DNA of 64,000 nucleotides from an uncultured Bdellovibrionales bacterium (GTDB taxonomy: Bacteria; Bdellovibrionota_C; UBA2361; CAIXSY01). Both the position numbers and the translations under genes were made by a program. The stretch lies in assembly GCA_964510065.1 (NCBI GenBank), contig CAZEAC010000006.1, forward strand, positions 6,748-70,747, in the 5' to 3' direction. The notes below the pieces were generated by a model, which worked only from the letters and a program-made list of their open reading frames with translations, did no database searches and was not told the origin of the DNA. Positions 60,465 through 64,000 of this stretch are shown here, piece by piece (position 1 is the first letter of the stretch; each line of letters opens with the position of its first letter).

Positions 60465-60545
60465 GAGATCTCTGCAGCTACCTATTCTGATATCTCGCCA
60501 GCTGCACCTTATAGAATCGAATAATATTTGGATCCTTCACCAATC
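60465..60545. repeat. Dispersed repeat family C, copy 2. It forms the last 24 codons and the stop of the TPR gene
   Basis: About 90% identical to 54122-54201, and extends about 15 bp past the TAG stop at 60478-60480. Confidence 0.8.
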
Positions 60546-60906
60546 CACCCTCGATCTTATCGCCGACCTCACCGAGGTACGTGCCTGCCGCATTGAGATC
60601 GCGCGCACTTAATTGACAGCAAATCAGAAAGAGCAGGCCGACAATAGTTTCAGGATCAGCTTTCAGCGCCTGTTGAGCTGCAGTTGCGGCAAGGTCAGCC
60701 TCGTTTTTTTGCATATGGACACAACACATGCCAAGCCAAGCCGGCGCAAAATCACCCGCAACTTCTGTGAGACCCGTAAAAATTATTTCGGCACGCCGCA
60801 TATCGCCATTCTCAAGGAGAAAACGGCCAAGCTCGTAGATATGCGCAAGCTCCTCGTCCGAATAGCCACGCTTCAAGACTTCTGATGGTGAACGATTTCG
60901 CGCCAT
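60478..60906 (-). CDS. TPR protein resembling class II type III secretion chaperones (SycD/LcrH/CesD-like)
   Basis: 142 aa with 3 TPR-like repeats whose pattern (YELGRFLLENGDMRRAEIIF...WLGMCCVHMQKNEADLAATAAQQALKADPE...ICCQLSARDLNAA) parallels LcrH-family chaperones. It lies 4 bp after the preceding ORF in the sct operon. Confidence 0.45.
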   Translation of the reverse strand: MARNRSPSEVLKRGYSDEELAHIYELGRFLLENGDMRRAEIIFTGLTEVAGDFAPAWLGMCCVHMQKNEADLAATAAQQALKADPETIVGLLFLICCQLSARDLNAAGTYLGEVGDKIEGGLVKDPNIIRFYKVQLARYQNR

Positions 60907-60909
60907 CGC

Positions 60910-61200
60910 TTAGTCCTCCCCTTTAGCTCCCGTTTCGGGCTGCACTTCGAGCCAATCGAGAACCTGACGAAGCATCGCTTCCTCGGCGGCGTGCCGCCGC
61001 AAAGCCGATTGGAACGAGCCGCTCGGCCGTCCTCCGGAATCCGTACTTAGTTCATTTTTTAACCCCTTCACACGCTCGTAACGTGCGTAAAAAGATGAAG
61101 TCAACGCTTCAAGTTTGCCGATTTTTCCCATTATCGGCAGCAACGAAACCATCGGAAATAGCGTGAAGCTATCAGGATCTGAAAATTGCGGCTTTTTCAT
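60910..61200 (-). CDS. Hypothetical 96-aa protein translationally coupled to sctU
   Basis: ATGA overlap with the sctU stop. No NPTH/FlhB C-domain motif and no recognised family. Confidence 0.4.
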   Translation of the reverse strand: MKKPQFSDPDSFTLFPMVSLLPIMGKIGKLEALTSSFYARYERVKGLKNELSTDSGGRPSGSFQSALRRHAAEEAMLRQVLDWLEVQPETGAKGED

Positions 61201-61853
61201 CGTTGACGACTCTCCTCGATCTCAATTTCAGCGCTACTCATTCGGAACTGTATCATAAAAGCCGCCCTCGATATAAGCCAACAAACCGGCATGGCAATAA
61301 TCGCACCAATGGCGATGTACGGCGAAACCGCACCAAGAAAATCAAGCGGCCAGCTTCCGAAATGGAGGGGCTCCCTCGTGAGCATGCTCATCACATCTCG
61401 CACTACCATTAATGTGAGTCCCAGCGCCGCCCCCACAAAAATAATGGGAAGTAGTACTCGACCAACTATACCAGTATCGCGACGGACTCGCCGGGCCTCG
61501 CTCCACGGATTGAGCCGCTCGAAGCGAATGCCGACGAGCTCGCCCAAGAAAAGAAATCTTGTCTGAAGTAGCGCAACGGCTACGCGGGCCACCACAACTG
61601 CTAGCAACGGCAGAAGAAGCAGCGAGCCAGCTTTTCGCAAAAGCGGTACGAACTCTCCAGGACCTGTCCACGGCGACGACAATAGTACGCTCGTCTGATC
61701 AAGGACTCCAAGTAATTCTCGCTCCATCGCCACAAACGTCGCAAGCAGCGCTAAGATTCCTGCCATCGCTATCACGCCACGGCTGTAGTGAGCAATGCCC
61801 GTCTCCCAGAGCTCTTGCAATCGCGCACGTGTAGGTCCTTCAAGTCGCTCCAT
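61197..61853 (-). CDS. sctU: T3SS export apparatus protein SctU/FlhB, membrane domain only (C-terminal autocleavage domain absent)
   Basis: The N-terminus MERLEGPTRARLQELWETGIAHYSRGV matches the FlhB/SctU opening (E-K-T-E-x-P-T...), followed by four TM helices and FERLNPWSEARRV (compare FlhB FSKLNPLPGIKR). The ORF stops after FRMSSAEIEIEESRQR, at the position of the FlhB linker, and no NPTH motif is found in any downstream frame. Confidence 0.6.
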   Translation of the reverse strand: MERLEGPTRARLQELWETGIAHYSRGVIAMAGILALLATFVAMERELLGVLDQTSVLLSSPWTGPGEFVPLLRKAGSLLLLPLLAVVVARVAVALLQTRFLFLGELVGIRFERLNPWSEARRVRRDTGIVGRVLLPIIFVGAALGLTLMVVRDVMSMLTREPLHFGSWPLDFLGAVSPYIAIGAIIAMPVCWLISRAAFMIQFRMSSAEIEIEESRQR

Positions 61854-61859
61854 CGAGGT

Positions 61860-62459
61860 CTAGCCCCCACGCACAATAAAGAGAGCTGTTGGGCTCAAGG
61901 TCCTTGCGACAAGGCCCGGAGCCATGTTTGCTACAAGGGAGAGTAAGAAGATTATCAGTAGTGGGCGAAGTGCGAACAGTTCACAGGGGACCCGCACTCG
62001 AGCAGAGCGAGTAAAATACACCACCAAAAACTCAAAGAGCGCGATTACGCTCCACACCGAAAGCGCAATAGACGCAGCAATGAATAGCCCCGCGCCAAGA
62101 AGCGCCGTGCAGAAGCCGATTTGCAATGGCAGCGAATTTTCACTAAGAACTGTGAGCGCAACTTCAACAAAGTCGAAAAAGCTCGAAATATTGAACCAAA
62201 ATGCAATCGTCAATGGCAGCGCGACCAGCGAAAACACTTCACATGCGGGAGTACTCAACCTGTCGAGAAGGAGCCCCACCGCGCGGACTGCGAAAGGGAT
62301 GATACAAAGCGTACTTGAAAAGAGAAAGAAACCGAATGGAGAAGCATTCGGAAGCAACACCGAGAAGAAGACCATCCAGCCCAGTGCAAGCGTAAAAATC
62401 GCTAGCTGCGCTCCACTGCCCCAGGCAAATAAGCTTGCAACTATCGGCACCCAGATCAT
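61860..62459 (-). CDS. sctT: T3SS export apparatus protein SctT/FliR
   Basis: Polytopic membrane protein of 199 aa placed between sctS and sctU. Assigned mainly from the conserved gene order, because sequence motifs are weak. Confidence 0.5.
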   Translation of the reverse strand: MIWVPIVASLFAWGSGAQLAIFTLALGWMVFFSVLLPNASPFGFFLFSSTLCIIPFAVRAVGLLLDRLSTPACEVFSLVALPLTIAFWFNISSFFDFVEVALTVLSENSLPLQIGFCTALLGAGLFIAASIALSVWSVIALFEFLVVYFTRSARVRVPCELFALRPLLIIFLLSLVANMAPGLVARTLSPTALFIVRGG

Positions 62460-62692
62460 GGCTGATACGCAATCTGAAAAAGCCTAAGCACAGTATCTCG
62501 ATACAGCGGAAAAAGAAGGTAGAGTACTGCACAGATTGCGCAAAGCTTACAGGCGTACGCGACCACACCGTCCTGAATCGCAGTAGCGCTCATCAGCACC
62601 CCAACAATGACACCCGTGAGTGTCGCCGCACCCGCCACCGGAAGCACCAACACGAGCAAAGTCCGAATCGCTGAATTAAGTATCTCCTCCAT
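62456..62692 (-). CDS. sctS: T3SS export apparatus protein SctS/FliQ
   Basis: MEEILNSAIRTLLVLVLPVAGAATLTGVIVGVLMSATAIQDGVVAY... parallels FliQ, including the ATQIQE-like motif ATAIQD. The start is probably the internal Met. Confidence 0.7.
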   Translation of the reverse strand: MEEILNSAIRTLLVLVLPVAGAATLTGVIVGVLMSATAIQDGVVAYACKLCAICAVLYLLFPLYRDTVLRLFQIAYQP

Positions 62693-62694
62693 GG

Positions 62695-63273
62695 CTAAAG
62701 ATACCCCTGCAATAGCTTCTCGGTCACTGCACTCCAACCATTTATCGCGAAAAATACAAAAAGCTTCAGCGGAAGCGATATCAGCGTTGCGGGAAGCTGA
62801 GTTACATTGAGCAGCATCATCACGTTGACAATCAACAGATCAATTACGAGAAATGGAACGAGCAAGAGCAAAGCCAGTTGAAACGCCTCTGAGAGCTCAG
62901 TTACCAGAAAGGAAACGATCAGTGCTTCAAAACGAGGCGCTCCTTCTTGCGCCCCCACCTGTCGCGCTATCTTCGAGACTCGCTCGGTAACTTTAGGATC
63001 GCTGTTCCGCTCAAGAAACGGACGAAAGGTCGCGTCTAGCTCATTAAGCGACTTTCCCTTCAATAGCCCATCAAATCCGCCGATGCGATCAAACTGCGGT
63101 GCCATCACAAGAAGTGTCAGCGCCAAAGTTACGGAGAGCACAATGATGCCGAAGCCATTGCCGCCAAGCCCAGCGCCAATGCGTAGAATATTGAGCGCTG
63201 TGAAAATCTTCACAAAGCAGGTAAGCAGCAGCAAAGCCGCGATTCCCACAAGTGCTGCTGGAACTCCATCCAT
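62695..63273 (-). CDS. sctR: T3SS export apparatus protein SctR/FliP
   Basis: LVTELSEAFQLALLLLVPFLVIDLLIVNVMMLLNVTQLPATLISLPLKLFVFFAINGW matches the FliP/SctR conserved core (VTSELKTAFQIGF...PFLIIDLV...LPFKL...DGW). Confidence 0.8.
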   Translation of the reverse strand: MDGVPAALVGIAALLLLTCFVKIFTALNILRIGAGLGGNGFGIIVLSVTLALTLLVMAPQFDRIGGFDGLLKGKSLNELDATFRPFLERNSDPKVTERVSKIARQVGAQEGAPRFEALIVSFLVTELSEAFQLALLLLVPFLVIDLLIVNVMMLLNVTQLPATLISLPLKLFVFFAINGWSAVTEKLLQGYL

Positions 63274-63278
63274 AGCGC

Positions 63279-64000
63279 CTAATCCACACTAATCGCGAGC
63301 CGTCCCTCGTAGAGGCAAAGTGTTGCCTCTGCGACTCTCTCGCCATTTACCACCATCGAGACTCGGTTAGTAAGTTTTACTCCGGTATCCCAGATAGCAC
63401 CAACCTGTGCCATCTCAGCGATCGTGCCAGCGTCGAATCGAACAGTGCCAAATTCAATTGAAAGCCGAGTGGTCCCGTCGGGACATGGCGGCGAGAATAC
63501 TGGCCCTGGCGCGATTTCAAACCCCAGATTGCCATTTATGGTCACCAGTTTTCCGGGAAGCCAAGGTTTGCCGCCAAGCTTGAGTGTGAGCGCATCGCTT
63601 GGCGGAAGCTCAAGATCGATTCCGGCCTCCGACTTCATATAATCAATTAGCATTGAGGGCGGTACCGCAAGTTGCGCAACCTCTAAACTCACTTCCGGAG
63701 CTTTATCAAATTGCTTTGCCGACGAGCGAACCTGCCGCCGCCATAAGCCATCGAGACGTTCAACAAACATGCGTCCTAGAACGATCCATACCGTCGCTGG
63801 TGTGCCACGAATATCAATACCAACTTTAATCGCGCCGACGGCAGCTACATCTTGCGGCAAAATCTCGGCGTTAAAACGGACAACCGAAGCCTCCGGGCCG
63901 CTCCAGGAAAGCGCAAGACTTGTAAGGAAACGTCGCGCGATATATTGCCCAACAACTTTACTCGCGTGCGCGCCAATACCAGGTGACACTGCTTCAAAAA
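63279..64000 (-). CDS. sctQ: T3SS sorting-platform protein SctQ (FliN/YscQ/SpaO family), 5'-partial because the ORF runs off the window
   Basis: C-terminal SpoA-like segments (DLELPPSDALTLKLGGKPWLPGKLVTINGNLGFEIAPG; VKLTNRVSMVVNGERVAEATLCLYEGRLAISV). There is no stop between the annotated start and the window edge. Confidence 0.6.
   Translation of the reverse strand, partial: FEAVSPGIGAHASKVVGQYIARRFLTSLALSWSGPEASVVRFNAEILPQDVAAVGAIKVGIDIRGTPATVWIVLGRMFVERLDGLWRRQVRSSAKQFDKAPEVSLEVAQLAVPPSMLIDYMKSEAGIDLELPPSDALTLKLGGKPWLPGKLVTINGNLGFEIAPGPVFSPPCPDGTTRLSIEFGTVRFDAGTIAEMAQVGAIWDTGVKLTNRVSMVVNGERVAEATLCLYEGRLAISVD

Follow-up and report, generated by a model that had tools for sequence, protein, structure and literature searches.

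We analysed a 64-kb stretch of DNA from an uncultured Bdellovibrionales bacterium (GenBank assembly GCA_964510065.1, contig CAZEAC010000006.1), hereafter referred to as the window, for a cluster of genes resembling those of type III secretion systems (T3SS). All coordinates given below are positions in the window unless a related locus is named. The cluster lies on the minus strand and runs from 60478 to the window end, where seven open reading frames (ORFs) are tightly packed, four of which (SctQ, SctR, SctS and SctU) are backed by Pfam. We consider it probable, at roughly 60%, that a T3SS-like operon of a distinct family has its distal end in the window, and that in this family SctU natively lacks its switch domain and a small protein and a tetratricopeptide repeat (TPR) protein form a pair at the export gate. 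The finding that carries this view is a large protein family in which the short form of SctU is native and conserved.

A short SctU conserved across a protein family

The SctU of the window matches the Pfam profile PF01312 over positions 2-218 of 335 only. Likewise, a search of solved structures aligned it with residues 9-228 of the 383 residues of FlhB, the end of the ORF corresponding to about residue 235. The window SctU ends ten residues past its 'FRMSSAEIE' motif, with which the linker begins; in FlhB this linker runs on to the NPTH autocleavage domain. The protein comprises the four-helix membrane domain, the gate loop and an initial part of the linker. A preliminary description of this DNA, made from the sequence alone, had SctU covering the membrane domain and ending at the start of the linker, and both alignments bear this out.

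Scanning 1.84 billion representative proteins by HMMER with the short SctU returned 82 matches. The approximately 70 closest relatives match end to end and are almost all 193-239 aa long, with a few shorter fragments, while full-length FlhB and SctU proteins (345-361 aa) enter the ranking only from E = 2e-5. The 45 short SctUs that were aligned share the N-terminus TEWPTxxRLxELREQGxVPYS, the entry to the gate loop (GLLQTRFLF ... RLNP) and the motif HRM(T/S)RxE, after which they end within 8-15 residues. The stop codons of sctU were verified in the DNA of 9 independent assemblies. A sequencing error near 61197 that hides an in-frame C-domain was also considered, and it was rejected because the same end point is found in dozens of independent clusters and assemblies. 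Judged by the FliPQR-FlhB structure, the conserved regions correspond to the parts on and under the gate. In that structure the membrane domain and the loop of FlhB are integral to the gate, with the loop wrapping the SctS/FliQ subunits; covariation also connects the N-terminus of FlhB to the beginning of the linker (PMC7064499). Substrate switching, for its part, requires NPTH cleavage in the globular C-domain (PMC7064499). A separate observation concerns P0008, a protein of 2120 aa in which five stretches match residues 146-198 of the short SctU (E = 1e-12), and which is probably a repetitive hydrophobic protein.

Related loci were collected by pattern scans and exact look-ups, with 10 kb visible on each side. 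The pattern used for the locus scan, GL[LFV]QTRF[LF]F, was taken from a 12-sequence subset of the 45 aligned proteins. As this pattern is narrow, the number of loci found understates the size of the family. A word-indexed protein search recovered only 4 short SctUs. Four loci belong to metagenome-assembled genomes (MAGs), labelled Deltaproteobacteria (L001), Bdellovibrionales (L002 and L003) or merely "bacterium" (L009), and metagenome contigs provided L011-L015, L028-L033 and two further loci.

The missing C-domain was searched for in two ways. Across all 64 kb of the window, no reading frame has a real ORF that contains the motif NP[TSE]H. In addition, a hidden Markov model (HMM) of the FlhB C-domain (FlhB-C), built from 28 sequences and run unfiltered, gave no match in the window or in the searched short-SctU loci, and recovered 18 of 18 full-length controls at 1e-57 or better. 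The absence of NPTH that the preliminary description had reported for the immediate vicinity thus extends to the entire window, where the FlhB-C model is equally silent. The same description left a choice between a split gene and an export gate that is either degenerate or repurposed. The searches exclude a split gene nearby, in the window as well as in some 200 kb from related loci, and the family-wide short form excludes a degenerate gate; the repurposed gate is the part of that proposal that stands.

The small and TPR proteins and their genomic setting

In 17 of 17 related loci the short sctU is followed by an orthologue of the small protein and then, wherever the sequence continues, by an orthologue of the TPR protein. 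HMMs of these two proteins have matches immediately after the short sctU in 10 of the 10 loci of the first set and in 0 of 18 loci with full-length flhB. The same order of short sctU, small-protein gene and TPR gene was also seen in L028, L030, L031/L032, L033 and two further loci. Mean pairwise identities over seven loci were 41% for SctR, 41% for the TPR protein, 40% for the small protein, 30% for SctS, 27% for SctU and 22% for the protein at the sctT position. Since their identity is on a par with that of SctR, the small and TPR proteins are strongly constrained core components and not fast-evolving effectors.

The junctions between sctU and the small-protein gene, as read in the DNA, range from an overlap to a gap of about 50-60 nt, and the two genes are translationally coupled in three cases, namely the window, L001 and L015. 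A gene for a 266-aa ion channel (Ion_trans) is inserted at this junction in L011 (positions 10675-11475 of that locus). Coupling is therefore not obligatory, which rules out a programmed frameshift, conserved in the family, that would fuse SctU with the small ORF. The sequence 'SDPD' in the small protein was considered as a remnant of the 'GDP' linker motif of FlhB and was likewise rejected, as the spacing is wrong and the FlhB-C HMM is silent there.

The family of the small protein comprises at least 84 clusters, all of 71-103 aa and all from metagenomes or MAGs, and each source name given is 'hypothetical' or 'uncharacterized'. Profile searches of Pfam and PDB with this protein were empty. 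An AlphaFold2 model based on 50 homologues has a predicted local distance difference test (pLDDT) score of 74.8, with values of 85-92 in the helices. It predicts an extended, Pro/Leu-rich N-terminal region of 25 residues with a conserved "SPLLxLLPxxG", and two antiparallel helices (27-53 and 61-84). The TPR protein is 30-61% identical to its orthologues. Among small families, its best NCBIfam matches are LcrH_SycD (1.6e-6, 27.9 bits, spanning model positions 11-109 of 136) and SctY (8e-5, 23 bits). These two models are matched by 8 of 8 orthologues (best E-values of 7.4e-10 and 1.3e-9, respectively), and three orthologues weakly match the CdsG family. The preliminary description likened the repeat pattern to LcrH/SycD-type chaperones. 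This holds in so far as the best small-family matches are T3SS chaperones, and fails for membership in class II, since the score of 27.9 bits compares with a curated cut-off of 104.8. To call the TPR protein T3SS-chaperone-like is to describe a resemblance only.

With regard to the remaining genes of the cluster (Table 1), SctR scored 106 bits against the fliP model of NCBIfam, 97 bits against the SctR-subfamily model and 85 bits against yscR, each under the equivalog cut-off. The scores of SctS were near equal for the SctS and FliQ models (35.3 versus 34.0 bits). For SctR, SctS and SctU alike, flagellar and non-flagellar models thus gave similar scores, all far under the equivalog cut-offs, which indicates a divergent system. 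The mechanically called ORF of sctS begins at an upstream TTG (62737). The sctQ ORF is open at the window end, and its orthologues in L001, L011, L015, L028 and L031/L032 are 327-345 aa long. The sctU stop codon overlaps the start of the 96-aa ORF in an ATGA that was read directly in the sequence, and the TPR ORF starts three bases past the stop codon of the 96-aa ORF. Between sctQ (stop 63279) and sctR (start 63273) there is no space for FliO. The remainder of the 64-kb window is otherwise ordinary chromosome in which no SctV, ATPase, secretin or FlhB-C was found. The source contig has a length of 89,657 bp, of which the window covers 64 kb, and its proteins are singletons.

The protein encoded at the sctT position, together with 5 orthologues, matched no Pfam family (Bac_export_1 included) and no NCBIfam family, and its comparison with FliR alignments by hhalign gave probabilities of 0.1-0.6%. 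It has about 5-6 hydrophobic segments, like FliR by the same crude measure, and in related loci it is always encoded between sctS and sctU. The sctT label is positional only, and homology to SctT or FliR is not demonstrable. Among the gene calls of the preliminary description, those of sctQ, sctR, sctS and sctU are thus backed by Pfam matches, with SctR, SctS and SctU all above the Pfam cut-offs, and that of sctT is reduced to a matter of position. Its further statements that no FliO gene separates sctQ from sctR, that an ATGA-coupled 96-aa ORF of no family follows sctU, and that the operon continues past 64000 agree with the gene boundaries, the empty profile searches and the open sctQ ORF described above.

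Closer examination of the related loci revealed a minimal conserved block of sctR, sctS, the gene at the sctT position, short sctU, the small-protein gene and the TPR gene (L002, L030 and L033). In fuller loci, the upstream genes encode two FHA-type SctD proteins (FHA 1e-30; Yop-YscD_cpl 2e-16), a short SctJ, a protein of 73-79 aa and SctQ, and in some of them also a weakly FliJ-like protein of 111-128 aa. The double FHA-type SctD together with SctJ (YscJ_FliF) and SctQ was found in L001, L011, L028 and L031; the corresponding sctD and sctJ of the window's own operon would be expected past 64000. SctV is encoded in L009 (FHIPEP, 6e-153), L015 and L031/L032, the last of which span the system from sctV through the TPR gene to the sigma-factor module described below. 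Because SctV, FHA-type SctD, SctJ and SctQ are present in related loci, the cluster can be regarded as a genuine T3SS. No ATPase (SctN/FliI) was found in the window or within 10 kb in any related locus, and within the same range no secretin SctC, needle SctF, ruler SctP or translocator in any locus, L031/L032 included; genes for these may lie elsewhere in the genomes.

Between sctV and the FHA-type sctD lies a gene for a Ser/Thr protein kinase of about 775 aa with HEAT repeats (L015, 1195-3519; L031/L032, approximately 800-3128), a position which suggests that the basal body may be under phosphorylation-dependent control. This layout of kinase and FHA genes can be likened to the phosphorylation-control schemes of CdsD/PknD in Chlamydia and of Fha/PpkA in type VI secretion systems. 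Two further observations on these loci should be mentioned. The 73-79-aa protein between sctJ and sctQ belongs to no family (L001, 6743-6964; L011, 7325-7552; L015, 6989-7228; L013, approximately 1507-1746), and its sequence 'RxRALxAxxxLLDGxEA', judged by eye, looks like an N-terminal motif of FliG. In a relative, GCA_041447075.1, about 8 kb separate the short-SctU cluster from a gene of FliK type with a Flg_hook domain, which implies that this organism also has a flagellum with a conventional hook-length and switch system.

Two divergent sigma-factor-like genes and a gene for a protein of about 115 aa adjoin the TPR gene in L001, L002, L003, L009, L011, L015, L030, L031 and L033. The window holds the same module about 14-15 kb from the T3SS operon, with unrelated genes between them. 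The sole PDB matches of the sigma family F1a are to FliA, and these are weak (E = 0.036). The protein of family F10 has a Gly/Val-rich N-terminal half that looks disordered and a conserved helical C-terminal half, and profile searches with it gave no PDB or Pfam family and no match to FlgM. Expression of the T3SS is probably tied to the linked FliA-like sigma factor and this small, probably partly disordered protein. By analogy, the F10-type protein could be an exported anti-sigma factor, and the arrangement suggests, as a lead only, an export-coupled checkpoint in the style of FlgM.

Table 1. Genes of the T3SS-like cluster and of the sigma-factor module, with positions in the window
Feature	Position	Strand	Evidence
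sctQ, partial	63279..64000	-	FliMN_C 8.2e-10; two SpoA/FliN-type stretches; N-terminus past window end
sctR (FliP family), 192 aa	62695..63273	-	PF00813 5.4e-32, 111.7 bits (cut-off 26.9)
sctS (FliQ family), 78 aa from ATG 62692	62456..62692	-	PF01313 2.7e-11, 43.7 bits (cut-off 25)
Membrane protein at the sctT position, 199 aa	61860..62459	-	Position and polytopic nature
Short SctU, 218 aa	61197..61853	-	PF01312 (Bac_export_2) 5e-15, 56.1 bits (cut-off 24.4)
Small conserved protein, 96 aa	60910..61200	-	ATGA-coupled to sctU; no Pfam or PDB family
TPR protein, 142 aa, about three TPRs and capping helices	60478..60906	-	TPR_19 2.5e-5
Sigma-factor-like gene, family F1a	44864..45661	+	Locus-adjacent family HMM 7.9e-123; Sigma70_r2
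116-aa protein, family F10, candidate anti-sigma factor	45658..46008	+	Family HMM 6.1e-35; ATGA-coupled to the F1a gene
Second sigma-factor-like gene, family F1b	43618..44556	-	HMM 5e-100; Sigma70_r2 and r4; divergent from F1a

Some other genes of the window were also recorded. A gene at 57658-59829 (plus strand) is convergent with the end of the T3SS operon. Its product of 723 aa has an N-terminus like a signal peptide, carries many Cys-rich repeats of about 55 residues and matched no Pfam family. On the minus strand, the gene of a HerA-like ATPase (40090-41655; HerA_C, 5.6e-225) overlaps that of a 587-aa protein without a family (41636-43399), and the two may constitute a two-gene module. 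A gene for a dynamin-family GTPase (30007-31596, minus strand) lies near that of a 592-aa protein without a family (27691-29469, minus strand), and these are possibly a bacterial dynamin-like pair.

Explanations for the short SctU

In the explanation that we favour, the starting point is that the short SctU retains the parts that build and gate the channel: its N-terminus, its four helices in the membrane, the loop that wraps the gate and the first residues of the linker. It lacks the NPTH domain which, in flagella and injectisomes, switches export from early substrates (hook or needle) to late ones. We infer that such a machine needs no substrate switch, as it would build neither a needle nor a hook of controlled length. 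The finding that needle, ruler and secretin genes are present in no locus agrees with this view, which has a parallel in the needle-less systems of Myxococcales (PMC3459982; PMC12075869). With less confidence, the TPR protein may serve the small protein as its dedicated chaperone, and the two together may act at the export gate in the way that SctX:SctY acts on SctV. The small protein could then be a chaperoned first substrate or a factor that primes the gate, and the pair may take on the docking task for which other systems use the SctU C-domain.

Several observations weigh against this explanation. The protein at the sctT position gave no match that would identify it as SctT. A fold search with the model of the small protein retrieved generic helical hairpins only, with E-values of 0.3 or worse. 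The TPR protein scored below the curated cut-offs of both the class II chaperone family TIGR02552 (27.9 versus 104.8 bits) and the SctY family NF052415 (23 versus 70 bits), its PDB profile search was dominated by generic TPR proteins, which score higher, and its single-sequence model is poor (pLDDT 61). The FlhB-C search covered the window and related loci, about 260 kb altogether, and a stand-alone FlhB-C gene may lie elsewhere in the genome. The list of parts is incomplete, with the ATPase found in no locus and SctV in few. Lastly, all members of the family come from uncultured organisms, and the system is known from sequence alone.

The C-domain might instead be the product of its own gene at another site in the genome and be added to the gate in trans. 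This possibility deserves attention, as free-standing FlhB-C-like proteins exist, namely FlhX of Helicobacter and YlqH of Bacillus, and as the FlhB-C search covered the window and related loci, outside which such a gene may lie. However, an HMM that recovers every control gave no FlhB-C signal in the window or in the searched short-SctU loci, and the slot after sctU is always held by two unrelated, all-helical proteins. We therefore regard a split SctU as quite unlikely. Somewhat less improbable, although we would still not expect it to be correct, is a non-homologous replacement, in which the small and TPR proteins would substitute for the SctU C-domain as a tethered docking or regulatory module that is not exported. 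The strict co-occurrence of the pair with the short sctU, the adjacency of these genes, their translational coupling in the window, L001 and L015, and a conservation of the pair like that of SctR would all fit this idea. Yet the pair has no structural or sequence similarity to FlhB-C, and the intervening ion-channel gene of L011 shows that coupling can be dispensed with. It should be noted that this idea overlaps with the explanation that we favour, and that the present data do not separate the two.

Two simpler explanations find hardly any room. That the gene is a decaying remnant of an ordinary sctU or flhB, or the product of an assembly or sequencing error, might be suspected solely because the ORF is short. 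But a single end point recurs across dozens of independent protein clusters and assemblies, the neighbouring genes are all intact and tightly spaced, and the family has diverged deeply (27-41% identity) without disruption, so that decay or error is extremely improbable. An ordinary flagellar fliN-fliPQR-flhB operon has an equally negligible probability. In its favour, the flagellar and non-flagellar models perform about equally for SctR, SctS and SctU, and at least one relative has a FliK-type gene nearby. Against this stand the absence of FliO, of a downstream flhA and of a full-length FlhB from the cluster, and the upstream genes of the relatives, which encode an FHA-type SctD (Yop-YscD_cpl) and a short SctJ instead of FliF, FliG or FliM. 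Moreover, the genuine flagellar loci obtained in the same scans have a full-length FlhB and are devoid of the small and TPR genes.

The reading of the window as part of a distinct family with a natively switch-less SctU can be taken further, although the odds are somewhat against the wider proposal and we make it tentatively. Short SctU, the hairpin protein and the TPR protein might as a triad define an unrecognised T3SS-derived class that is widespread in uncultured, flagellated Bdellovibrionota-like bacteria. This class would have no switch, needle or secretin, and possibly no dedicated ATPase. Its chaperoned hairpin protein would have taken over the docking role of the SctU C-domain, and the class would be linked to a dedicated FliA-like sigma factor, to a candidate for an exported anti-sigma factor and to an input through a Ser/Thr kinase and FHA domains.

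Comparison with known systems

SctU/FlhB with its NPTH autocleavage domain belongs to what is regarded as the universal core of type III secretion, and it is the molecular switch that orders export. The literature that was searched describes neither a SctU lacking its C-domain nor the small and TPR pair, and it reports no non-flagellar T3SS from Bdellovibrionota. The short SctU has in common with canonical SctU and FlhB its N-terminal region, its four helices in the membrane, its gate loop and the beginning of its linker. The canonical proteins differ by a C-terminal autocleaving NPTH domain, which is absent from the short SctU of the window and of the family. A conserved family devoid of the C-domain shows that the membrane part of SctU can serve alone as a gate subunit, and the requirement for the C-domain can be studied in it as a natural system without a switch.

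The sigma-factor module recalls the FliA/FlgM checkpoint in that a FliA-matching sigma-like gene, ATGA-coupled to that of a protein of about 115 aa, lies beside T3SS genes in most loci. The similarity to FliA is weak, however (E = 0.036), and the protein of about 115 aa has no FlgM match. With the class II chaperones (LcrH, SycD, IpgC and PcrH) the TPR protein shares an architecture of three TPRs in about 140-170 aa. In contrast to these, its partner would be a soluble hairpin of 80-100 aa and not a large hydrophobic translocator, and translocator genes are absent from the loci. The conserved 'SPLLxLLP' of the small protein resembles the chaperone-binding motif P/VxLxxP, but the spacing does not fit. 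A further parallel is found in needle subunits, as PscF with PscG/PscE and YscF with YscG/YscE are helix-loop-helix proteins of about 80-90 aa that are kept by a small TPR-like chaperone. The loci described here have a conserved helix-loop-helix protein and a TPR-like gene as well, but they differ from the PscF and YscF systems in showing no similarity to SctF, no co-chaperone gene and, in any locus, no genes of a secretin or needle complex.

The pair also resembles SctX:SctY of Ysc-type injectisomes, where a small helical protein and a TPR-like chaperone of about 115-145 aa are encoded beside the genes of the export apparatus. YscX:YscY docks on the SctV ring and is needed for a secretion-competent machine (PMC9163089). 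Unlike SctX:SctY, the present pair is encoded after sctU, the TPR protein reaches 23 bits where the SctY cut-off is 70, and the small protein resembles no known family. The two orphan proteins beside the short SctU are concrete candidates for a new gate-binding factor.

As a probably needle-less machine, the system is most readily compared with that of Myxococcales, whose 'Myxo' non-flagellar T3SS comprises the export apparatus, inner rings and sorting platform but no secretin, needle or translocon (PMC3459982; PMC12075869). The system with short SctU and the needle-less T3SS* of Myxococcus xanthus (mxan_2434-2464) are also alike in being deep-branching T3SS-like systems of predatory, formerly 'delta-proteobacterial' lineages. 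The Myxo loci include an ATPase, whereas the short-SctU loci show none within 10 kb. The T3SS* that co-occurs with the Kil system appears to be restricted to Cystobacterineae (PMC12428579), and the short-SctU family is found in MAGs labelled Bdellovibrionales or Deltaproteobacteria; the comparison draws on published descriptions of T3SS*. The family described here extends needle-less T3SS-like machines past the Myxococcales, to uncultured and probably predatory lineages, and this spread bears on the origin of the injectisome from the flagellum.

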